Under the pieces are notes generated by a model. It saw nothing but the letters and a program-made list of their open reading frames with translations. It was not told where the DNA came from and searched no databases. Source: Escherichia coli (GTDB taxonomy: Bacteria > Pseudomonadota > Gammaproteobacteria > Enterobacterales > Enterobacteriaceae). From it: 64,000 nucleotides of DNA. Made by a program: the position numbers and the translations under genes. The stretch is taken from the NCBI RefSeq assembly GCF_044324875.1, contig NZ_CP172185.1. One strand, written 5' to 3'. Positions 4,491 to 57,568 of the stretch are shown here, one piece after another; the stretch's first letter is position 1, and every line of letters begins with the position of its first letter.

Positions 4491-5255
4491 ATGAAAATAA
4501 TAACCTGCTTTAAGCTGGTGCCTGAAGAACAGGACATTGTTGTCACTCCAGAATATACCCTGAATTTCGACAATGCCGACGCCAAAATCAGCCAGTTCGA
4601 TCTCAATGCCATTGAAGCTGCAAGCCAGATTGCAACAGATGACGATGAGATAGCCGCGCTGACCATTGGCGGCTCATTGTTGCAGAACTCGAAAGTGCGT
4701 AAAGACGTGCTATCCCGCGGGCCGCACAGCCTGTATTTGGTGCAGGATGCGCAACTTGAACATGCACTACCTCTCGATACCGCAAAAGCACTGGCGGCAG
4801 CAGTTGAAAAGATCGGCTTCGATTTACTGATCTTTGGTGAAGGTTCCGGCGACCTTTATGCCCAGCAGGTTGGCTTGCTGGTCGGAGAAATTCTGCAACT
4901 TCCGGTGATTAATGCAGTGAGTGCTATTCAGCGTCAGGGCAATACACTGGTGATTGAACGCACGCTTGAAGATGATGTTGAAGTTATTGAGCTCTCTGTT
5001 CCAGCCGTGCTCTGCGTCACCTCCGATATTAACATGCCACGCATTCCTTCGATGAAAGCCATTCTCGGCGCGGGTAAAAAACCGATAAATCAGTGGCAGG
5101 CAAGTGACATTGGCTGGAGCCAGAGCGCGCCACTTGCTGAACTGACCGGCATTCGCGTACCGCCGCAAACAGAACGTAAGCACATCATTCTCGATAACGA
5201 TTCGCCGGAGGCCATTGCCGAGCTGGCGGAACATCTGAAAAAAGCCCTGAACTGA
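4491..5255 (+). CDS. ydiQ: electron transfer flavoprotein beta subunit (FixA-like)
   Basis: Start MKIITCFKLVPEEQD at ATG 4491 with AGGAGA RBS; ETF-beta-like; synteny. Confidence 0.85.
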   Translation: MKIITCFKLVPEEQDIVVTPEYTLNFDNADAKISQFDLNAIEAASQIATDDDEIAALTIGGSLLQNSKVRKDVLSRGPHSLYLVQDAQLEHALPLDTAKALAAAVEKIGFDLLIFGEGSGDLYAQQVGLLVGEILQLPVINAVSAIQRQGNTLVIERTLEDDVEVIELSVPAVLCVTSDINMPRIPSMKAILGAGKKPINQWQASDIGWSQSAPLAELTGIRVPPQTERKHIILDNDSPEAIAELAEHLKKALN

Positions 5256-7904: not shown

Positions 7905-9551
7905 ATGAAAGTGACATTAACGTTTAACGAACAACGTCGTGCGGCGTATCGTCAGCAAGGGCTATGGGGCGATGCTTCGCTGGCCGATTACTGGCAGCAG
8001 ACCGCTCGTGCGATGCCAGACAAAATTGCCGTGGTCGATAATCATGGTGCATCGTACACCTATAGCGCGCTCGATCACGCCGCGAGCTGTCTGGCAAACT
8101 GGATGTTAGCGAAGGGTATTGAATCAGGCGATCGCATCGCATTTCAACTGCCTGGCTGGTGTGAATTTACCGTTATCTATCTTGCCTGCCTGAAAATCGG
8201 TGCGGTTTCCGTGCCGCTGTTGCCTTCCTGGCGAGAAGCAGAACTGGTGTGGGTGCTCAATAAGTGTCAGGCAAAAATGTTCTTTGCACCGACGTTGTTT
8301 AAACAAACGCGTCCGGTAGATTTAATCTTGCCGCTGCAAAATCAGCTTCCACAACTACAACAAATTGTCGGCGTGGACAAACTGGCTCCCGCCACCTCTG
8401 CTCTCTCATTAAGTCAGATTATCGCCGACAATACTCCTCTGACCACGGCGATAACGGTCCACGGCGATGAATTAGCCGCGGTGCTGTTTACCTCCGGAAC
8501 CGAGGGTCTGCCAAAGGGCGTGATGCTAACGCATAACAATATTCTCGCCAGTGAGCGGGCTTATTGCGCGCGGTTGAATCTGACCTGGCAGGATGTCTTT
8601 ATGATGCCTGCGCCACTTGGTCATGCAACGGGCTTTCTGCATGGCGTAACGGCACCATTTTTAATTGGTGCTCGCAGCGTGTTGTTAGATATTTTCACTC
8701 CTGCTGCGTGTCTCGCGCTGCTTGAGCAGCAGCGTTGCACCTGTATGCTCGGCGCAACGCCGTTTGTCTATGATCTTTTGAATTTACTGGAGAAACAGCC
8801 CGCTGACCTTTCAGCGCTGCGTTTCTTTCTTTGCGGCGGTACCACAATCCCCAAAAAAGTGGCGCGTGAATGCCAGCAGCGCGGCATTAAATTATTAAGT
8901 GTTTATGGTTCCACAGAAAGTTCGCCGCACGCAGTGGTGAATCTCGATGATCCTTTGTCGCGCTTTATGCATACCGATGGTTACGCTGCCGCAGGAGTTG
9001 AGATTAAAGTGGTCGATGACGCACGCAAGACCTTACCGCCAGGTTGCGAAGGTGAAGAAGCCTCGCGTGGCCCCAATGTGTTTATGGGGTATTTTGATGA
9101 ACCTGAATTAACCGCCCGTGCGCTGGATGAAGAAGGCTGGTATTACAGCGGCGATCTCTGCCGCATGGATGAAGCTGGCTATATAAAAATAACCGGGCGC
9201 AAGAAAGATATTATTGTCCGCGGCGGCGAAAATATTAGCAGCCGTGAAGTAGAAGATATTTTATTGCAGCATCCTAAAATTCACGATGCCTGTGTGGTTG
9301 CGATGCCCGATGAACGTTTAGGTGAACGCTCATGCGCTTATGTCGTGCTGAAAGCCCCGCATCATTCATTATCGCTGGAAGACGTGGTGACTTTTTTTAG
9401 CCGTAAACGGGTCGCGAAATATAAATATCCTGAACATATCGTGGTAATCGAAAAACTACCTCGCACTGCCTCAGGTAAAATACAAAAGTTTTTGTTAAGG
9501 AAAGATATTATGCTGCGATTAACTCAGGATGTCTGTGAAGAGATTGAATAA
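7905..9551 (+). CDS. fadK: short-chain acyl-CoA synthetase
   Basis: AMP-binding motif TSGTEGLPKGV; start taken at MKVTLTF (ATG 7905) rather than the upstream in-frame ORF start at 7851. Confidence 0.8.
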   Translation: MKVTLTFNEQRRAAYRQQGLWGDASLADYWQQTARAMPDKIAVVDNHGASYTYSALDHAASCLANWMLAKGIESGDRIAFQLPGWCEFTVIYLACLKIGAVSVPLLPSWREAELVWVLNKCQAKMFFAPTLFKQTRPVDLILPLQNQLPQLQQIVGVDKLAPATSALSLSQIIADNTPLTTAITVHGDELAAVLFTSGTEGLPKGVMLTHNNILASERAYCARLNLTWQDVFMMPAPLGHATGFLHGVTAPFLIGARSVLLDIFTPAACLALLEQQRCTCMLGATPFVYDLLNLLEKQPADLSALRFFLCGGTTIPKKVARECQQRGIKLLSVYGSTESSPHAVVNLDDPLSRFMHTDGYAAAGVEIKVVDDARKTLPPGCEGEEASRGPNVFMGYFDEPELTARALDEEGWYYSGDLCRMDEAGYIKITGRKKDIIVRGGENISSREVEDILLQHPKIHDACVVAMPDERLGERSCAYVVLKAPHHSLSLEDVVTFFSRKRVAKYKYPEHIVVIEKLPRTASGKIQKFLLRKDIMLRLTQDVCEEIE

Positions 9552-21992: not shown

Positions 21993-22010
21993 GTGTACTT
22001 ATAAGTACAC
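21993..22010. promoter_or_regulatory. perfect 18-bp palindrome GTGTACTTATAAGTACAC in the repressor/early divergent intergenic region (putative operator)
   Basis: Seen in sequence; flanked by a second inverted repeat gtattcttg...caagaatac. Confidence 0.5.
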
Positions 22011-22050
22011 AAGAATACAAATAGCCACAGACTGGAAAGGTTACCACATC

Positions 22051-26117: not shown

Positions 26118-28292
26118 ATGGAGTTCGTCAGAGACTGGCAAAAACCGCGCCCCGCTATCGGGCGCGAAGGCTTACCCGTACCTGAAACCGCACTGGATAC
26201 CATCCTGAAGTGTTACCGCGCGGACGAAGAGCGCGCCCTGAACGCTGAAGAGCAGGGTCATCCGCTTGCGGGCACAACCATCGGTAACGCGATCGACAAG
26301 TGGGAAGGCGCACAGGAGCGCCAGGAAGAGGCCATCACGCTCACACAGGAAGCGAAGAGACGCCCACCCACCCTCATTGAGGAAACCCTCAAAGAGCTGG
26401 ACACCCTGCCAAAGTGGTTGAGGCTGCCACTGATTAAGTACCTGAACTTCTTAAGGCGCAAACAGGAGGACGAACAGCAGAAAGGCAAGCGCGGCAAGGA
26501 CACCCGCAAATATGAGCGCTTCCTGAAAAACGGCATCCCCGCACGTCTTCGCCGTATTCGTGAGATTAACGCTCGCTTTGCACCGTTAAGTTTTCAGGCC
26601 GCTGCCATGCGCGAGAGTCTGGAAGAGTTAATCACACTGCCGAACCTGAGCCGTGAACGCATCCAGAAAATAGCCGTACTGCTTGCCAGCGCCGTTAAAA
26701 TGCATCTTGCCGACGCAATGGACAAGGCCCGCGAAATAACAGGGAACGACAAAGACGACAACCTGAACAACTGGCTGATTGCCTACCAGTATATTGGTCG
26801 CCGTGTCCTGAAGCTGGGGATCACCCCACCATACTGGAGCGCCCTTGAACTCCGTCCCGACCGCAGAAGCCCCCCGGACCTGACACTGGTACCGGGCGCT
26901 GTTTTGCGCCTGAACGACGCCGAATGGTGGAATAAAAAACTTCGCCAGATGCACGACGTCTGGCGTGAGGAACTTTTACGTGCAGCGGGCCTTGTATCCC
27001 GCCAGACCTCCATTTATGTGAGCCGGGAAGCGCTGGCAGACTTCCGCGAGAAACAGGCCCGTACCCGCGATTTTCTCAAAGCGCACGACGTGGAGAACGA
27101 AGACGGCGAACGCATCAGCCTGGAAGATATCTACTACGCCAGTACATCCAACCCGCATAACCGCCGCAACGAGATGATGGCGTGCGTCAAGGGAATGGAG
27201 CTTATCGCACAGGAACGTGGCGACGTGGCCTTCTTCGTCACGGTCACAGCCCCGTCTCGTTTTCACAGCGTCACCGACGCCGGTACCCTTAACCCGAAAT
27301 ACAAAGGCACAACAGTAAAAGACGCCAGCGACTATCTGGTTTATAACTTCTTCGCCTCCGCCCGCAAACTCATCAAAAAAGAGAAGCGGGGCTGGTACGG
27401 CATTCGCACCGTGGAGCCTCACCACGACGGCACGCCCCACTGGCACATGCTGGTATTCACAAGCCCCGAGAACGAAGCGCGCATCACGGAAATCATGTGC
27501 AATGCCGCCATCCGTGAAGACCGTGCAGAGCTGGGCGACGACATTACCCCGCGCTTCAAGTGCGAGAAGATAGACCCCGAAAAAGGTACGCCAACCAGCT
27601 ACATCGCCACCTACATCGGCAAAGGCATTGACGCCGCCGCATTCGGCGACACGGATCCCAAAACAGGCAAACCGCCCGTTGACCACGAAAGCGGAAAACC
27701 TATGGCGGACACCGTGGAAAACGCCGTCGCCTGGGCACGCCTGCATCGCATTCGCCAGTTCCAGTTCTTTGGCCTTCCCTCACGTCAGGTGTGGCGCGAG
27801 TTCCGCCGCCTTGCCGGACAAATGGCACGCAACCCGAAGGGGCCGCAGGCACTGACCAACCCCAAAGCCGACGCCCTCCTTGTTGCAGCCGATACGGGGT
27901 GTTTTGCCAGCTACATCATGCATCAGGGCGGTGTGCTCATTCCCCGCAGTGAATATCTGGCCCGCACGGCCTACGTCACCGCAGAAGAGCCGAACAACTA
28001 CGGCGAGTTCCCCGACCGTATTTACGGTGTACGGATGCCGGAACTGGGCGATGAGTTCACGTTATGTACCCACCCGGAAGAGTGGAAAATCGTCAGAAAG
28101 GAACCGGAACCAGACAACCGCACGGGCGAGGGTTTTGACCTTCAGGGCGACCCCGTCGCCCCTTGGACTCGTGGCAATAACTGTCACCCTGACGAAAAAA
28201 ACAACCAACAACAGCACACAAACAGAACAGTCAGAGTGGGCAAAACTGCCCCCCTTACCCCCATCGTCGGACGGTTTTGTGAGCTGGTTTAA
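26118..28292 (+). CDS. replication initiation endonuclease (P2 gpA-like rolling-circle Rep)
   Basis: 724-aa ORF with HxH metal motif (PHWHMLVF) and downstream Tyr-containing ...YIATYIGKG...; P2 gene order. Confidence 0.85.
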   Translation: MEFVRDWQKPRPAIGREGLPVPETALDTILKCYRADEERALNAEEQGHPLAGTTIGNAIDKWEGAQERQEEAITLTQEAKRRPPTLIEETLKELDTLPKWLRLPLIKYLNFLRRKQEDEQQKGKRGKDTRKYERFLKNGIPARLRRIREINARFAPLSFQAAAMRESLEELITLPNLSRERIQKIAVLLASAVKMHLADAMDKAREITGNDKDDNLNNWLIAYQYIGRRVLKLGITPPYWSALELRPDRRSPPDLTLVPGAVLRLNDAEWWNKKLRQMHDVWREELLRAAGLVSRQTSIYVSREALADFREKQARTRDFLKAHDVENEDGERISLEDIYYASTSNPHNRRNEMMACVKGMELIAQERGDVAFFVTVTAPSRFHSVTDAGTLNPKYKGTTVKDASDYLVYNFFASARKLIKKEKRGWYGIRTVEPHHDGTPHWHMLVFTSPENEARITEIMCNAAIREDRAELGDDITPRFKCEKIDPEKGTPTSYIATYIGKGIDAAAFGDTDPKTGKPPVDHESGKPMADTVENAVAWARLHRIRQFQFFGLPSRQVWREFRRLAGQMARNPKGPQALTNPKADALLVAADTGCFASYIMHQGGVLIPRSEYLARTAYVTAEEPNNYGEFPDRIYGVRMPELGDEFTLCTHPEEWKIVRKEPEPDNRTGEGFDLQGDPVAPWTRGNNCHPDEKNNQQQHTNRTVRVGKTAPLTPIVGRFCELV

Positions 28293-28329
28293 GTCGCTTA
28301 AGAGGCCGGACAGGAAAAAACTACAAAGA

Positions 28330-28608
28330 TTGCTCAAAAAACGCACCGAAGAGAGTCGCCAGAACGCCAGCGGCGGCACCGACACACCCACCGACACCAT
28401 TAACCTGGGCGTTGTGCTGCCGGAACTGCCGGAAATCGTGCAAGTCCGCCGCGATCTGGAAGCGCTGGGCGCGGACTTCCCCGAAGCAATGGCCCATTCC
28501 GTCTTTATGGGTGCCCGCGTTCGTCTGGGTGACGGTCGCACCGTTCACCGCGACGAGCAGACCGGGCGCATCACCGTCACCAGTCTGCAACCGGAGGCGA
28601 AACCATGA
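28330..28608 (+). CDS. small ORF after gpA (possible TTG start; alternatively ATG 28489)
   Basis: Open frame from gpA stop to 28608, stop overlaps next gene start; start codon unresolved. Confidence 0.3.
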   Translation: MLKKRTEESRQNASGGTDTPTDTINLGVVLPELPEIVQVRRDLEALGADFPEAMAHSVFMGARVRLGDGRTVHRDEQTGRITVTSLQPEAKP

Positions 28609-29015
28609 ACCGTTATCATTGTGTACTGCCGCGCCACTACTTCGGTCAGATTATGCGCTCGCGTATTCCGGCGGTCACGCTGCGAAACCTGAGCACGGTA
28701 CCGCAGCCGGGCGATGAGCTGGAAATCGCCGTAGCAGGCCCTGACCGTTCAGCCAGCTGCGTGACCGCCGACGTGCTGAACGCCGTGCCCGTAGGTGGTG
28801 ACTGGCTGGTTGCCATCCGCTTCCGCCAAGACCCGTTCGCACCTGAACCGCTCACCCCCGCAGGCCGCATCATGCAGAACTGGCGGGATGAAGGCGCGAA
28901 GGCGAACTGCGAAAAACTGATTAACAGGATTGCCACGACAAACCGACATGCCGCGCTGGCGCGCCGGATATACCCCGCAAAATCAACACAACCAACAGGA
29001 GTAAAAGGCCCATGA
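28605..29015 (+). CDS. hypothetical protein (accessory island gene 1)
   Basis: 136-aa ORF, translationally coupled (ATGA overlaps). Confidence 0.55.
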   Translation: MNRYHCVLPRHYFGQIMRSRIPAVTLRNLSTVPQPGDELEIAVAGPDRSASCVTADVLNAVPVGGDWLVAIRFRQDPFAPEPLTPAGRIMQNWRDEGAKANCEKLINRIATTNRHAALARRIYPAKSTQPTGVKGP

Positions 29016-29278
29016 AAAGAATCGCCGGAACTGACTACCAGGAGCTGCTTAAAGCGGTGGAAAACTACCGTTCAGCGCTGGTGTGGTGTGAGATTAAGCC
29101 CTGTGACCCGGGAGCAGTTAAGGATTGCAACCGGGCGCGTGAGGACATTCAGCGCGTAATTGGCTACCGCTATGTAGCAGCCATTATTGACCTTGTGAAT
29201 GAACTGGAGGAAGCAAAAGAGCGCATCGCAGAACTGGAAACCCAGAATAACCCCAACCAGCAGGAGCAGAAGCCATGA
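29012..29278 (+). CDS. hypothetical protein (accessory island gene 2)
   Basis: 88-aa ORF, overlapping start/stop. Confidence 0.5.
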   Translation: MKRIAGTDYQELLKAVENYRSALVWCEIKPCDPGAVKDCNRAREDIQRVIGYRYVAAIIDLVNELEEAKERIAELETQNNPNQQEQKP

Positions 29279-29856
29279 AAAAAAGAGACCTTAAAAAACA
29301 CCTCCGTAGTCAGATTGAATATTTTGAAGATAAGGCTGCAAAAACAGGGCTTTCCGGTAAAGAGAACATGAACTTCAGGGCACACCTCCTGACGTGGAGA
29401 ATACTTAATATCACGAGAGATGGACTTGAGCCGCTAGCCTACCTGATGGAAGATGGCGAGACCCTCATACAGGATCCCAATGTGGAAATGGAGAAGAAAG
29501 AGATGGACCTGCCGATAATCGGGCTGTTTGAGATCCCTGAACTAATAGGACGTTATGAACACGAAAACCGCCAGCTTGCCGCCTTTTTATCCGTGACAAT
29601 CGAACGACTGGAAGCCGTGAAACACGATATTCCGTTCGGTTTTGATGAGCGCACCGAGGGTGATTTGCTCAGCTTTCAGATTGCCCTGAACGTGCTCACC
29701 GCAGAGCCTTCTGCGTGGCTACGCCCGGAACGGCACCACAACACGTTCGCATTTACCGTAATTCCCTACGATGCCGCACAGGAAGAGGATAACTTCGAGA
29801 CCAGGCTTGTTCCCCTGTATCAGATTGCGGATTTCTATACGTTGATTCGCTGGTAA
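29275..29856 (+). CDS. hypothetical protein (accessory island gene 3)
   Basis: 193-aa ORF, overlapping start; followed by terminator. Confidence 0.55.
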   Translation: MKKRDLKKHLRSQIEYFEDKAAKTGLSGKENMNFRAHLLTWRILNITRDGLEPLAYLMEDGETLIQDPNVEMEKKEMDLPIIGLFEIPELIGRYEHENRQLAAFLSVTIERLEAVKHDIPFGFDERTEGDLLSFQIALNVLTAEPSAWLRPERHHNTFAFTVIPYDAAQEEDNFETRLVPLYQIADFYTLIRW

Positions 29857-29870
29857 TCCCCCACAGTAAA

Positions 29871-29895
29871 ACAGCCCGACCGGGCTGTTTTTTTA
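29871..29895 (+). terminator. intrinsic terminator (acagcccgaccgggctgt + T7)
   Basis: Seen in sequence after the 29275-29856 ORF. Confidence 0.6.
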
Positions 29896-29951
29896 TCTGA
29901 TATTTTTGATAACGTTGACCGGCTCATTAGCAAAAAAGCAAAGAGGAAAAC

Positions 29952-30338
29952 ATGAAAGCCCGTATCGGGATCATCCCGGAAAAAGCCCTGCGCCAGCACC
30001 TGATTGATATTGCCAGAGGGAAGCGAAAACCACAGCCCGACGAGCCAAAGGTATGGTTTTCATCCATCAATGCGGCAGGCCAGACGCTGAGCAATGAAAA
30101 TATCGCCCTTCTGCGTCTTATGAATGAGGAGAAGCCGCAGACCATGACCGCACTTGCGGAGTTATCCGGCAGAAAACTGAGCAACCTGTCTGTAACCCTG
30201 AAAATGCTGAGCAGCTACGGTTTTGTCAGTCTGGAAAAGAAAGGGAATACTGTACACCCGAAAGCACTTTTTACCGATTTTGAAATCATCGTTGATCCGT
30301 CCGTGGGTTCAGTACATCGCGCCACCGCCCGGCCCTGA
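29952..30338 (+). CDS. hypothetical protein, possible winged-helix DNA-binding
   Basis: 128-aa ORF with RBS GAGGAAAA; segment ...MTALAELSGRKLSNLSVTLKML... looks HTH-like. Confidence 0.45.
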   Translation: MKARIGIIPEKALRQHLIDIARGKRKPQPDEPKVWFSSINAAGQTLSNENIALLRLMNEEKPQTMTALAELSGRKLSNLSVTLKMLSSYGFVSLEKKGNTVHPKALFTDFEIIVDPSVGSVHRATARP

Positions 30339-30348
30339 AGTGCGCAAT

Positions 30349-30370
30349 AAACAGCCCCGTTCGGGGCTGT
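30349..30370. terminator. hairpin cagccccgttcggggctg between convergent genes
   Basis: Seen in sequence between 29952-30338 (+) and 30374-30748 (-). Confidence 0.45.
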
Positions 30371-30373
30371 TAT

Positions 30374-30748
30374 TTATTCCAGAATCAGCTGTTCAGGTGT
30401 GCAGCCGTACAGTCTGGCAAGGCGCTCAATATTTGCCCTGCGCGGGCGTTCCGTTCTTTCGAATTCGGACACGGTAGCCTGCCTGATACCCAGCGCATCC
30501 GCCACCTGCTTTTGCGTCATTCCGCGATAGATTCGCCACGCCGCCTGCATTGTGCAGCCACGCTCCGAGAGAATGTTAACCACCTCGTTGGGATACAGCG
30601 TATCAGGCGATGCACACGGTTCGTTCTGGACGTCCTCGTAGAGTTCGTCAAGGTCGCTGTCTCCTGCCAGTTTTTCAAACAACGCCACTGGCAGAATGAC
30701 GGACACCCTGTTACCCGCACCGTCAGTAATAAACTGAATCTGACTCAT
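30374..30748 (-). CDS. XRE-family HTH protein, putative antitoxin/regulator
   Basis: 124-aa ORF; C-terminal ...MTQKQVADALGIRQATVSEFERTERPRRANIERLARLYGCTPEQL typical XRE HTH; strong RBS CAGGAGGGG. Confidence 0.6.
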   Translation of the reverse strand: MSQIQFITDGAGNRVSVILPVALFEKLAGDSDLDELYEDVQNEPCASPDTLYPNEVVNILSERGCTMQAAWRIYRGMTQKQVADALGIRQATVSEFERTERPRRANIERLARLYGCTPEQLILE

Positions 30749-30794
30749 TTACCCCTCCTGCTAAACATCGGTTTATTTTTTAATTTGCTGCCGG

Positions 30795-30821
30795 TGATAA
30801 AAAACGGCGGGTCGCCCCGCC
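30795..30821 (-). terminator. hairpin ggcggg-gcga-cccgcc + T6 immediately after the RelE-like stop
   Basis: Seen in sequence (reverse complement of 30795-30821). Confidence 0.45.
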
Positions 30822-31094
30822 TTAGTATGTTGTCGAGGTTCTCCGCTGAATACGGAGGATCCTGATAACCACTATCTGCCCTCCCTCAATCGTGAACCTG
30901 ACACGGTAATGATTTACCCTGAGTCTGTACTCCCCGCCCGAGTCAGTGAGCTTTTTAATATCCAGATTCTGGAACTTCGGATAGCCATAAAGCGCGTTAA
31001 CTTTCTCGCGTAAGGATTTCTGATCCCTCGCTGGCAAAACCCGTAAATCTTTGATTGCCCGAGGGGTCCACATGATTTCAGTCGTCATAAACAC
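30822..31094 (-). CDS. RelE/ParE-superfamily toxin-like protein
   Basis: 90-aa ORF; ...KKLTDSGGEYRLRVNHYRVRFTIEGGQIVVIRI... matches the RelE/ParE pattern (KxL..G...YRLRVGDYRV.Y). Confidence 0.6.
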   Translation of the reverse strand: MFMTTEIMWTPRAIKDLRVLPARDQKSLREKVNALYGYPKFQNLDIKKLTDSGGEYRLRVNHYRVRFTIEGGQIVVIRILRIQRRTSTTY

Positions 31095-31677
31095 ACCGGA
31101 AGCAAATTATTAAAGAGCCGTGCCCGCTGGCACACCTTAAATATAGGTTTTAACCCCTATATTGTCAAACAAAATCCCTATATCATGAAGTAAAAAAGCA
31201 CCTCCCGCGACCTCCCTTTCCGGTGCACGAAAGTGCACAAATTTGCACAATTTTTTTGAACGACTTTTTGCCCTTCCGGCCCGTGTGGCGTCTGGATCCG
31301 TCGGGGATCCGTGCGTGCACGAAAAAAGGCCTTTTTCTGCGCGCAGGTGACGGGGGAACAGCCCGCGTTTCAGGGGGTAAATAGCATTCCCTGAACGATG
31401 TTGCAGTGACACAACAGAATGGCTGTATTTCTCACGCTGAGCGTGAAAAAGACGTAAGGGCTTTTGATTTGATGGGGTGAAAGATAAGGCCGTCAAAATC
31501 GCACTGAGGCAGCGAGAATATGTCGTCAGAGTTGCGGGGTTGCGTAAGCATCCGCCCGGCGATGATGGCTACAGGGCTGGAGATGTTGTGAAATTATCTG
31601 AAGGAATAACCAGCTTGCAGGAGAACCCGGGCAAAGTCAGAATAGCGGCAGGCATCAACTCAAAAGAGGATAATGTC

Positions 31678-32181
31678 ATGAGCCACTTTAATGATTTATG
31701 CCAGATCAATCGTGAAGCTGAAGAAAAACGCGCTGAGGCAGCTCAAATTTTGCGGGATGAAGCGGCAAGGCTGATTGATTTCTATGAAGAATGGCTGGGG
31801 CTTCCATCCATGTACTGGGAAGACGATGATGGCGACCTGCACCGCTACGTGGAGACAGGCTTGCCATGTAAGACAGCGGCGGATTTTAGTCCTCTTTCAG
31901 TCCACAATATCGCATCTGCACCAGACAATATTTTCCGCATGGCCGTGCGAACCTGGGTTAAGTCATCTGACAGCAGCTACCCGGTAAGCGTGGTTATTGC
32001 ACTTGAATTATATTCAGTAGATGCGGAACGGGTGTCTCTGAGAGTCCGGGTGGAAGACGATATTTCTGTTCGCGTATTTATCAATAAACCCAGCGAAGAA
32101 GCCTGGGGCGATGTTGTTATGCACATGAAAAAGCACATCGCTAATCACCTGAAAAAGCGAGCGCCATCAGCACTTCGTTAA
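31678..32181 (+). CDS. hypothetical protein adjacent to portal gene
   Basis: 168-aa ORF from ATG 31678 with RBS AAGAGGA (in-frame GTG 31477 would give 234 aa); followed by hairpin. Confidence 0.5.
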   Translation: MSHFNDLCQINREAEEKRAEAAQILRDEAARLIDFYEEWLGLPSMYWEDDDGDLHRYVETGLPCKTAADFSPLSVHNIASAPDNIFRMAVRTWVKSSDSSYPVSVVIALELYSVDAERVSLRVRVEDDISVRVFINKPSEEAWGDVVMHMKKHIANHLKKRAPSALR

Positions 32182-32197
32182 GCAGAGCTGGAGAGTC

Positions 32198-32221
32198 GGG
32201 GCATAAATTTTTTATGCCCCG
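32198..32221. terminator. palindromic hairpin ggggcataaattttttatgcccc between convergent ORF and portal gene
   Basis: Seen in sequence. Confidence 0.5.
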
Positions 32222-32247
32222 GCGAAGCAGCAGACAAGCGAAGCGCG

Positions 32248-33303
32248 TCAGGATATGGGCTGGGTGTCTAACAGTGCGTAAGGGTTAAAACGGATCACCT
32301 CTTCGCCCAGCCAGTCGTTGACGTGTTTCATTGCTTCCATGACGGGCATCAGTTCGTTAATGGCAAACACACGGGCTGCCTTCTCCACATCCCCGAATGA
32401 CCCCTTCTCACCCGGCATGGCCCCCATCAGCTGCGGCGGTACACGGTGCACGGACAGCACATCATCACGCGATGCAGCCTTGACGTTCATGAACTCATCC
32501 TTTGCGGTGATTTGCTGAAACGGCAAAATCTGTACGCCATCCTTACCACCTCCCGCCGCGTGGATGAGCAGATTTTTAAACGCCCCGCCACCACGCGCGC
32601 TTTGCAGTGTTTCCCGCAGTTTTTCCATGCTTTCACGGTCAACCTGCGCCGCACCGATGTAGACAATACAGCCCGCGTGTGAGCCGTTATCGTAGTAGAG
32701 CTTGCGGAAGATATCGGCGGAATGTGACAGGCTGGCAGACAGCAGGCCGCCCAGGTAATCCGGCATCCCGTAAATCTCCTGGTTGATATCAGGATTCATC
32801 AGGTGGCATATCGTCCCCTCACGAAAGCGGTACTCTTCCTGTCCTTCCTGTATATACCACCATGATTTCATATCGCTGCCACGTCGCATGTATTTCGCCA
32901 GCGCCCGGCGCAGGGCCAGCGGTTCGCCAAGCATGTTGCGCCGCAGCTCAAGACAGGCATTACCGAACACAAACCAGTCCATCGCCACCCCGGCGAACTC
33001 CTGGCGGGACAGCAGAGGATGTGGAATATAGCAGCCCAGCAGCACATTACGTTTGAAGCTGAGCGCCGACTGGTGCCAGGACGTCTGGCGGGCAGCCCGT
33101 GCCAGTCCGTACCAGTCAACGGGCGTTTCAAACCACCGCCCGTTGTCGGCGCAGTACATGCTGTCCAGCAGGTCGGCCCCTGACAGCCGGTAAGGTCCTT
33201 CAAACGTGAAGGCACTCAGTGTCGGGTCGCTTCGCAGGGAATCCGCAAGGCTGCCCTGCGCTGCGCGGGCGTTCGTACGTCGTTGTTTATTTTTTCTGCT
33301 CAT
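32248..33303 (-). CDS. portal protein (P2 gpQ-like)
   Basis: 351-aa ORF; position and orientation as P2 Q, overlapping terminase gene. Confidence 0.85.
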   Translation of the reverse strand: MSRKNKQRRTNARAAQGSLADSLRSDPTLSAFTFEGPYRLSGADLLDSMYCADNGRWFETPVDWYGLARAARQTSWHQSALSFKRNVLLGCYIPHPLLSRQEFAGVAMDWFVFGNACLELRRNMLGEPLALRRALAKYMRRGSDMKSWWYIQEGQEEYRFREGTICHLMNPDINQEIYGMPDYLGGLLSASLSHSADIFRKLYYDNGSHAGCIVYIGAAQVDRESMEKLRETLQSARGGGAFKNLLIHAAGGGKDGVQILPFQQITAKDEFMNVKAASRDDVLSVHRVPPQLMGAMPGEKGSFGDVEKAARVFAINELMPVMEAMKHVNDWLGEEVIRFNPYALLDTQPIS

Positions 33304-35116: not shown

Positions 35117-35140
35117 TGTTGTCGGCATTCGCTTACAACA
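35117..35140. promoter_or_regulatory. dyad TGTTGT-N12-ACAACA in the divergent terminase/scaffold late promoter region (Ogr/Delta-type activator site)
   Basis: Dyad seen in sequence; matches known TGT-N12-ACA architecture of P2 late promoters. Confidence 0.45.
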
Positions 35141-54406: not shown

Positions 54407-54490
54407 ATGTTTCACCCTTGTCTGGCTGGTTGATTTTGCGTAATCATTACCCACGATGCCGCCGGTATCATCTCCTGCCCGTTCTCACCG

Positions 54491-54506
54491 TTCGCTTACA
54501 ACAAAC
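54491..54506. promoter_or_regulatory. late-promoter-like motif TTCGCTTACAACAAAC upstream of D (same 16-mer as at 35128-35143)
   Basis: Exact 16-mer shared with the scaffold-gene promoter region. Confidence 0.3.
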
Positions 54507-56968: not shown

Positions 56969-57366
56969 TATCCAAGAACCCTGTCTGCAGCAACACGCGC
57001 CAGAAATCCAGAGCGGCTACCGTATTCAGGATGAGACTCAACGAACTGATCAATGCGACGAATAAGCAGAGATGGCAGGGTAACATTGATTTTTTCCGAT
57101 TTCCCCATCAGGCGGGACACATCCACCTCAACGAGCGCCCACACTGCATCACTGTATTCAGGATCTGATTGCCATTCATCAAGATTTGTAGCGACAGGGA
57201 TAGACTCACCAGATTCAACCAGTAATTCTACGTGTGCCTCAATGGCTTCACGGGCACTGTCTACCGCATCCTGAAAACTATCACCGCCAGAAAAACAGCC
57301 GGGCAGATCTGGGACGCGAACACCAAAAGATGAATCCCCCCGGTCAATAGCGATTGCATATAACAT
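56968..57366 (-). CDS. hicB: HicB-family antitoxin
   Basis: MLYAIAIDRGDSSFGVRVPDLPGCFSGGDSFQDAVDSAREAIEAH... typical HicB N-domain; C-terminal RHH-like tail. Confidence 0.8.
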   Translation of the reverse strand: MLYAIAIDRGDSSFGVRVPDLPGCFSGGDSFQDAVDSAREAIEAHVELLVESGESIPVATNLDEWQSDPEYSDAVWALVEVDVSRLMGKSEKINVTLPSLLIRRIDQFVESHPEYGSRSGFLARVAADRVLG

Positions 57367-57388
57367 TGAGACCTCCAGAAGGTGGGGC

Positions 57389-57568
57389 TTACAGCCCCGC
57401 CTGTTTCTTAATACTTTTTAAAGTTGGTAAAGGTATATCTTTTTGAGGGTGTTTTACCGTTACCAGCCCCTTCTTTGTCGGATGTTTGAATTGATGATGA
57501 CTCCCCTTAACCCTAACAAGATACCATCCATCCGCCTCTATCATTGCTATTGCACTTTTGCTATCCAT
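57389..57568 (-). CDS. hicA: HicA-family toxin (59 aa; absent from ORF track)
   Basis: Manual translation of minus strand: MDSKSAIAMIEADGWYLVRVKGSHHQFKHPTKKGLVTVKHPQKDIPLPTLKSIKKQAGL; 20 bp upstream of hicB. Confidence 0.75.
   Translation of the reverse strand: MDSKSAIAMIEADGWYLVRVKGSHHQFKHPTKKGLVTVKHPQKDIPLPTLKSIKKQAGL

Follow-up and report, generated by a model that had tools for sequence, protein, structure and literature searches.

What occupies the stretch between the replication endonuclease gene gpA and the portal gene gpQ of a P2-family prophage, and does it hold an undescribed system of anti-phage defence or exclusion? We addressed this question in 64,000 nucleotides of an Escherichia coli genome (NCBI RefSeq assembly GCF_044324875.1, contig NZ_CP172185.1; hereafter the window), which carry a P88-like prophage (Xuanwuvirus, Peduoviridae; P2 family) inserted between btuC and ihfA. 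An earlier reading of the letters, the original prediction, had described positions 28293-32247 as a single island of uncharacterised genes at the tin/old position of P2, and had ranked it as the strongest candidate for an undescribed defence or exclusion system in the window. Our analysis points to a different answer: with a probability of about 0.7, the interval, which is flanked by gpA (26118-28608) and gpQ (32248-33303), is a mosaic of independent units at a known cos-proximal hotspot of P2-family prophages, and not one system.

The position had been recognised correctly. The interval is the positional equivalent of the orf91-tin-old-cos region of P2 (the window gpA and portal share 30% and 44% identity with P2 A and Q, respectively), and it is the gpA–gpQ hotspot already catalogued by Rousset et al. 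(2022, PMC9122126), who reported 18,150 loci in 1,650 arrangements in E. coli, adjoining cos and carrying toxin-antitoxin systems among their cargo. As in P2, the interval lies between the replication endonuclease and portal genes, probably abuts cos and varies in content between near-identical prophages; it differs from the old-tin prototype in its P88-like backbone, in a probable cos region unrelated in sequence to that of P2, and in lacking old and tin. That nothing here resembles old or tin had been judged by eye and is borne out, since tblastn found no homologue of old, tin or orf91 in the 64-kb window (best E values of 2.0 and 0.4 for Old and Tin, both outside the interval). The finding is a real case of a known hotspot in a rare arrangement. 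The nearest complete genome, NZ_AP045770, is 99.7% identical across 12 kb around it. A sister arrangement, that of the relative L002, is entered in the portion of the published supplementary table consulted here as "hypothetical + hypothetical + HTH_3 + ParE_toxin + ...", with WP_029400441, WP_029400439, WP_029400438 and others among its proteins in the loci table; the exact arrangement of the window, including the 88/193 cassette described below, does not occur in that portion (PMC9122126).

Comparison of relatives confirmed the cargo turnover that had been anticipated: flanks are common to them, whereas the content differs even between near-identical prophages (ParMR, TumEA, small open reading frames [ORFs], a three-gene cluster). 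Loci of relatives are given L-numbers; L005 is NZ_AP045789 and L018 is Klebsiella phage 3LV2017 (KY271397). P88 and vB_EcoM-569R5 carry ParM/ParR-type genes, L004 carries small ORFs, and L002 carries TumE-TumA together with RelE-XRE. Repeatedly, the cargo nearest to cos is a toxin-antitoxin module (TumE-TumA, Gp49/HTH, RelE/XRE), for instance a Gp49/HigB-type pair at the same spot in Edwardsiella relatives. The cargo of L005 (4391-6919 of that locus) consists of ParM/ParR genes and three overlapping unknown genes on the other strand, encoding 459, 114 and 269 amino acids (aa), annotated as hypothetical and without a PADLOC match; the layout of these three, on the opposite strand and apparently a unit of its own, is more defence-like than anything in the window. 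Nor is the interval itself a single island: a conserved non-coding block, the probable cos region, splits the cargo (28605-31223) from a portal-side gene (31675-32181).

The first of the units comprises the end of gpA and the genes that follow it on the same strand.

28195-28201, + strand: run of seven A (A7) in gpA; A6 in four relatives (L001, L002, L007, L008), the extra A breaking the frame
28203-28608, + strand: C-terminal ~135 codons of gpA, out of frame; contains the possible 92-aa ORF of the original prediction
28605-29015, + strand: 136-aa gene (phrog_14984, E 2e-40), with an ATGA overlap with gpA and a Shine-Dalgarno site
29012-29278, + strand: 88-aa coiled-coil gene (phrog_16519, E 2e-10), without a Pfam match, in a rare 858-bp cassette
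29275-29856, + strand: 193-aa gene, last of the early operon; no Pfam match, two-repeat model
29868-29891, + strand: intrinsic terminator ending the early operon (-15.2 kcal/mol, then a T-run), at the right edge of the 858-bp cassette

The features that had been listed for the interval (the 136-, 88- and 193-aa ORFs, a terminator, a winged-helix gene, a RelE/XRE pair, a 580-bp gap and a 168-aa ORF) lie where they were placed, with the exception of the possible 92-aa ORF, which is not a gene but the C-terminus of gpA. Deleting one A in the window restores an 829-aa gpA ORF that ends at 28608; in L001, L002, L007 and L008 gpA is a single ORF of this length, ending at the equivalent position. The out-of-frame tail is 99-100% identical to the in-frame C-terminus of these four relatives, and 81% identical to that of L006. 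The true start of the interval is therefore 28605 and not 28293. As it reads in the window, gpA encodes 724 aa and lacks ~135 conserved C-terminal residues. For the extra A there are three possible explanations: an error of sequencing, a true mutation that inactivates the gene, or a site that slippage bypasses.

The 136-, 88- and 193-aa genes each overlap the preceding gene by ATGA and have a GGAG Shine-Dalgarno site ~10 nt upstream. No terminator lies between gpA and the hairpin at 29868-29891, and a consensus scan revealed no promoter belonging to the trio. These overlaps, ribosome-binding sites and the single terminator wire the three genes to gpA, and expression in lytic growth is therefore expected; from this layout we infer that they are made with gpA in lytic growth and not in the lysogen. 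We take the ORFs to be real genes because of the ratio of non-synonymous to synonymous substitution rates (dN/dS) of ~0.3 for the 136-aa gene against a relative, confident AlphaFold models for the 193- and 168-aa proteins (predicted local distance difference test score [pLDDT] of 85 for each), and homologues at the same position elsewhere.

The 136-aa gene tracks the gpA clade: it is 84% identical in L006, as is gpA itself, and 44% identical in L004 and L014-16, whose gpA has ~60% identity. It is kept in L006 and L014-16 even though their portals are just 30-32% identical to the window portal. It thus behaves as a replication-module gene of its gpA clade, not as cargo. The original prediction had allowed that the ORFs might turn out to be conserved core genes of the family, and this holds in part for the 136-aa gene. 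In position, and in its 4-bp overlap with the end of gpA, the 136-aa gene corresponds to orf91 of P2 (DUF3850), but the two have no detectable sequence relationship; that the protein is a diverged Orf91/DUF3850 was ruled out (hhalign probability 0.1%, no Pfam match). The longer gpA of P88 carries a C-terminal extension, and homology of the 136-aa protein to it was ruled out as well, tblastn giving no match. Searches of Pfam, NCBIfam and PDB with the 136-aa protein returned no match, and a PDB profile search of its family gave no credible one.

The 88/193 cassette is found in 3 of the 5,426 complete E. coli genomes in which all prevalences were counted. The 88-aa protein, for which a Pfam search gave no match, aligns weakly with the N-terminus of P22-type EaA (37% identity over 60 aa, E 4e-4). 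Some five relatives of the 193-aa protein occur among 1.8 billion representatives. Three of these follow gpA and a 136-aa homologue in other P2-like prophages, and a distant relative, sharing the motif IPFGFDE...LTA.P.AW, lies beside RecT/YqaJ in the early-left region of a lambdoid prophage (E 2e-4, also weak). The AlphaFold model of the 193-aa protein consists of two repeats of a helical hairpin plus a small sheet; the repeat is undetected by BLAST and visible only in the predicted secondary structure, and the protein has no match in Pfam and its model no fold match in PDB. The 88/193 pair may accordingly be described as a rare cassette with weak links to early-region 'ea'-type genes of lambdoid and P22-like phages: the 88-aa protein aligns with the EaA N-terminus and the 193-aa motif recurs next to RecT, with the caveat that both matches are weak. 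The 193-aa protein as a new toxin partnered with TumA (see below) was considered and ruled out, as a terminator separates the two genes and 193-aa relatives exist without TumA.

It is on this trio, together with the 168-aa gene near the portal, that a defence or exclusion system would have to be built. The hotspot is a proven reservoir of such systems, in that over a third of those cloned from it and similar hotspots were active, and one validated system of the P2 hotspot has three genes, none of them with a recognisable domain (PMC9122126). The lack of any Pfam match for the 136-, 193- and 168-aa proteins, of a PDB fold for the 193- and 168-aa models and of a defence-specific PADLOC match for all three would be compatible with something new, as would the rarity and variability of the 88/193 cassette. 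Against this, the trio is coupled to gpA on the strand of the early operon and has no promoter of its own, whereas old and tin of P2 lie on the opposite strand and have mapped transcript starts of their own; the 136-aa gene goes with the replication module; and relatives of the 193-aa protein are also found where there is no 88-aa gene, as well as in the early region of a lambdoid prophage. We consider a defence system here unlikely.

The same evidence bears on a second reading, namely that the 136-, 88- and 193-aa proteins, and possibly the 168-aa protein, serve the phage as replication accessory, host-takeover or counter-defence proteins in lytic growth. Small, fast-evolving proteins that keep their position are typical of phage accessory and anti-defence genes, and the trio is of this kind; early-operon wiring, co-variation of the 136-aa gene with gpA, the resemblance of the 88-aa protein to EaA and the distant 193-aa relative beside RecT/YqaJ in a lambdoid early-left operon all fit it. 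However, none of these proteins has homology to a known anti-defence or replication protein, and the 88/193 pair is dispensable, being missing from close relatives. We rate this reading at somewhat less than even odds. A defence or counter-defence role for the 136-, 193- or 168-aa protein is possible, and the wiring of these three unassigned proteins points to functions in the phage cycle rather than to defence expressed by the lysogen.

Within the mosaic, the next unit is a decayed toxin-antitoxin module.

29890-29955, + strand: 3' remnant of tumE (DUF6516), 63 bp, ~20 codons plus stop; promoter and first ~100 codons gone
29952-30338, + strand: tumA, intact gene for an HVO_A0114 winged-helix antitoxin (PF25212, E 3e-16; RefSeq name HVO_A0114 family protein)
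30350-30371, no strand assigned: bidirectional terminator of the convergent tumA and xre genes (-17 kcal/mol on both strands), close in sequence to the 29868-29891 hairpin

The remnant reads LSDIFDNVDRLISKKAKRKT before its stop codon in the window and LSDFFDNVDRLINEVTKGKA before the stop in L002 (tblastn, 65% identity over 20 aa, E 0.001), and its ATGA junction with tumA is preserved. Compared with L002, 858 bp of the window (29032-29889) replace 429 bp containing the tumE promoter region and the first ~100 tumE codons; the 858-bp segment comprises most of the 88-aa gene, the 193-aa gene and the terminator, and homology with L002 resumes at 29890. Intact TumE-TumA pairs occupy the same place in L002, L019, L021 and L022. 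In another E. coli prophage (L020, 3718-4088) tumE is frameshifted and tumA intact, and toxin loss therefore recurs. Between two toxin-less lineages, the tumA copies show 10 synonymous and 6 non-synonymous differences (dN/dS 0.18, from small counts), which suggests that tumA has been retained under selection after loss of the toxin. A consensus scan found no evident promoter for tumA following the deletion.

TumE and TumA form a toxin-antitoxin family that targets translation and has been validated by experiment (Durairaj et al. 2023, PMC10584680). As in that family, TumA of the window is an HVO_A0114 winged-helix protein, and in sister prophages its gene overlaps an intact DUF6516/TumE gene by ATGA; the window differs in keeping only the last ~20 codons of tumE, leaving an orphan antitoxin. 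Gene order also differs, the toxin coming first in these prophages while DUF6516 was mostly downstream of its partner in the published survey (PMC10584680). No link between DUF6516 and phages was found in the literature searched. The orphan tumA, which in at least two independent lineages has stayed intact although the toxin was lost, might be imagined as an anti-addiction or immunity gene against TumE of competing P2-family relatives, accompanied by the 193- or 168-aa protein as an undescribed exclusion or counter-defence factor; we regard this combination as doubtful.

The edges of the module indicate how the cargo may be exchanged. The terminators at 29868-29891 and 30350-30371 have near-identical stems and flank the tumE remnant and tumA. 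L006 carries, at 8585-8620, a hybrid of both hairpins with tumA deleted, followed by an 86-bp scar with the 3' end of xre. The 88-aa gene has been removed precisely from L006, while L002 keeps its first seven codons. From these hybrid terminators and scars it follows that short shared sequences, terminator hairpins among them, are the places at which segments of the locus are deleted and replaced as it evolves, and the sequence comparison suggests that the hairpins act as recombination junctions for cargo loss.

Such scars also raise the question of whether the interval is simply decaying cargo in a defective prophage, with gpA truly frameshifted, tumE lost and the other ORFs without current function. 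The frameshift is unique to the window, tumE is truncated, and the remains of xre and terminators in L006 speak for frequent deletion at the locus. Yet the remaining ORFs are all intact; the dN/dS values are 0.05 (xre) and 0.18 (tumA, two orphan copies compared), from small counts; indels relative to NZ_AP045770 are rare across 20 kb; and the frameshift lies in a homopolymer, where a sequencing error or bypass by low-level slippage is possible. General decay is improbable on this evidence.

The mosaic continues on the opposite strand with an apparently intact toxin-antitoxin pair.

30374-30748, - strand: XRE-family antitoxin/repressor, 124 aa, with an N-terminal extension and a C-terminal helix-turn-helix (HTH) domain (phrog_7241, E 2e-29; HTH_3, HTH_31)
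30806-30821, - strand: hairpin GGCGGG-N4-CCCGCC between relE and xre (-14 kcal/mol), followed by a T-run in the window
30822-31094, - strand: RelE/ParE-superfamily toxin gene, 83-90 aa (starts at 31073, 31088 or 31094), upstream of the antitoxin gene
31140-31183, - strand: Sigma-70 promoter TTGACA-17-TATATT of relE-xre (31168-31140, 11 of 12 positions matching) and presumed operator

The toxin matches PF05016 (E 4.7e-9), the RelE-like phrog_1213 (E 1.2e-14) and RelE3 (PDB 3bpq, E 3.7e-4). The promoter is overlapped by an inverted repeat, ATATAGG-N8-CCTATAT, with a third CCTATAT element 21 bp off. The module occurs in 9 of the 5,426 genomes, and the same pair is present in the gpA-portal hotspot of Klebsiella phage 3LV2017, with 53% (toxin) and 69% (XRE) identity, TATAGGG/CCCTATA palindromes around TTGACA and the same intercistronic GGCGGG-N4-CCCGCC stem (L018 ~4925-4945). 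In the 3LV2017 record the pair is intact and unannotated, at L018 4649-5372, between the portal and the methyltransferase/gpA genes. Its sequence features suggest that relE-xre is an intact type II toxin-antitoxin pair and the only unit of the interval with expression signals of the lysogen type. By analogy with characterised pairs, a contribution of the interval to prophage maintenance or to abortive infection would most likely come from this pair.

The pair resembles HigBA-like type II systems, for which we take HigB2-HigA2 of Vibrio cholerae as the comparison, in having a small toxin of RelE/ParE fold encoded upstream of an XRE-HTH antitoxin, palindromes over the promoter, and conservation as a pair in another phage. 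It differs in that the toxin falls below the RelE_StbE cut-off, the antitoxin has no solved relative by sequence, and a conserved hairpin splits the two genes.

The right part of the interval is a non-coding stretch followed by the portal-side gene.

31224-31607, no strand assigned: conserved non-coding block of ~385 bp, probable cos region, common to P88-type phages and present in ~1,140 of the 5,426 genomes
31399-31416, no strand assigned: dyad TGTTG-N8-CAACA (TGT-N12-ACA), its half-sites kept and its spacer variable in six relatives
31675-32181, + strand: 168-aa gene (phrog_5091) of alpha+beta fold, between the cos block and the portal gene
32197-32221, no strand assigned: bidirectional terminator between the 168-aa gene and the portal-terminase operon (-21.5 kcal/mol), kept in P88 and L006

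The gap between relE and the 168-aa ORF measures 580 bp (31095-31674), of which 31095-31183 belongs to the relE promoter/operator and not to the cos block. It had been called repeat-rich, which overstates the case: it has no repeat arrays, only CCTATAT/ATATAGG elements and GTGCAC motifs, three of each. Across 31224-31607, six relatives whose cargo is unrelated show a high similarity that sets in abruptly. In addition, phage P88_4B11 was deposited as a linear record whose cut falls at the equivalent of 31268/31269; a GTGCACGAAA repeat lies 45 bp away on either side of it (31223 and 31315). The conserved block is probably the cos region, given the cut of this one deposited linear record and the conservation. 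A search for the P2 cos 19-mer allowing 3 mismatches, and BLAST of the P2 cos region against 31095-31700, found nothing, and Rfam gave no match at E ≤ 1 across 28000-32400.

The dyad at 31399-31416 may, to judge by its sequence, be an Ogr-type late-promoter site. Similar TGT-N12-ACA dyads (...TTCGCTTACAACAAAC) occur at 35120-35137 and 54483-54500, in the P-O and FI-D late intergenic regions. As a marker of late promoters on its own, TGT-N12-ACA was rejected: its 8 sites in the window are fewer than the ~15 expected by chance, with intergenic sites only at 31399 and 35120. A small frame within the conserved block (31477-31607) is annotated as a separate 42-aa coding sequence in P88 and is fused in frame to the 168-aa ORF in the window, a fusion that accounts for database gene calls of 197, 234 and 236 aa. 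This frame may be non-coding, as many of the differences between relatives change an amino acid.

Contrary to its earlier description as an orphan, the 168-aa ORF belongs to the phrog_5091 family, with 16 protein clusters in Enterobacterales; its own allele (≥80% DNA identity) is found in 30 of the 5,426 genomes. The family always adjoins the portal gene, on the opposite side of cos from the cargo. The protein has a confident alpha+beta model, no Pfam match and no PDB fold match, and a PDB profile search of the family gave no credible match. We assign the gene to the portal side of cos, possibly as a late gene. Its place there, behind a late-promoter-like dyad, is a further argument against counting it as part of a defence system.

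PADLOC (PADLOC-DB 2.0) is likewise silent on such a system: it returned no defence-specific match, and five of the seven window genes and the gpA-tail ORF had no match of any kind. Its only hits were generic HTH-domain matches (CasR, RmrA, CapH) to the two DNA-binding proteins. The nine cargo proteins of relatives also had no match. Much of what had been called uncharacterised can in fact be assigned (TumA and the TumE remnant, the RelE/XRE pair, the gpA C-terminus), while the description stands for the 136-, 193- and 168-aa proteins.

As a mosaic of independent units, the interval would operate as follows. Positions 28203-28608 are the end of gpA, frameshifted by one extra A. The 136-, 88- and 193-aa genes would be the distal, coupled genes of the early replication operon, with the first of them belonging to the replication module. 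The tumE promoter and most of tumE would have been lost to the 88/193 cassette or to a deletion next to it, leaving the 63-bp remnant and an intact orphan tumA. The RelE-like toxin, by analogy with the RelE/HigB families, would cut mRNA on the ribosome, and XRE would both neutralise the toxin and, by way of the ATATAGG/CCTATAT palindromes, act as repressor of the promoter. Once the labile antitoxin was lost or shut off, the toxin would be freed, resulting in prophage addiction and possibly abortive infection. The non-coding stretch would provide the relE promoter and the cos region, with the 168-aa gene on the portal side, possibly as a late gene.

Several observations weigh against this account. 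The 136-, 193- and 168-aa proteins have no family or fold assignment, expression timing is drawn solely from gene layout and consensus scans, and the gpA frameshift is possibly a sequencing error. The position of cos is set by the cut of one deposited linear record, in a region without similarity to P2 cos. As to the toxin, its TIGR02385 (RelE_StbE) score of 22.6 bits is below the NCBIfam cut-off of 27.9 bits, a ParE-like target (gyrase) is possible, and the terminator-like hairpin between toxin and antitoxin genes is unusual for a simple bicistronic toxin-antitoxin operon.

Two further features of the prophage lie outside the interval. A HicA/HicB toxin-antitoxin pair (56971-57568, - strand), 100% identical to an annotated pair of NZ_AP045770, adjoins ihfA at the far end of the prophage and is a third module of toxin-antitoxin type associated with it. 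A perfect 18-bp palindrome, TGTACTTATAAGTACACA, lies at 21994-22011 near the integrase/immunity end and may be an operator.

Taken together, the interval contains no recognisable new defence system; the evidence presented here does not support its ranking as the strongest candidate, and that interpretation has a low probability. The current understanding of phage defence is unchanged by these findings, and their value is mainly corrective: what looked like a dark island resolves into a core gene with a frameshift, genes at the tail of an operon, two toxin-antitoxin modules, of which one is live and one decayed, and the probable packaging site. The family of ~165-aa proteins, with its conserved fold and its fixed site between cos and the portal gene, is a dark protein family. 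Near-identical terminator hairpins mark the edges of modules and are apparent recombination junctions. For the P2 family itself, TumE-TumA, a toxin-antitoxin system validated only in 2023, emerges as recurrent cos-adjacent cargo from which the toxin is repeatedly lost and the antitoxin kept.

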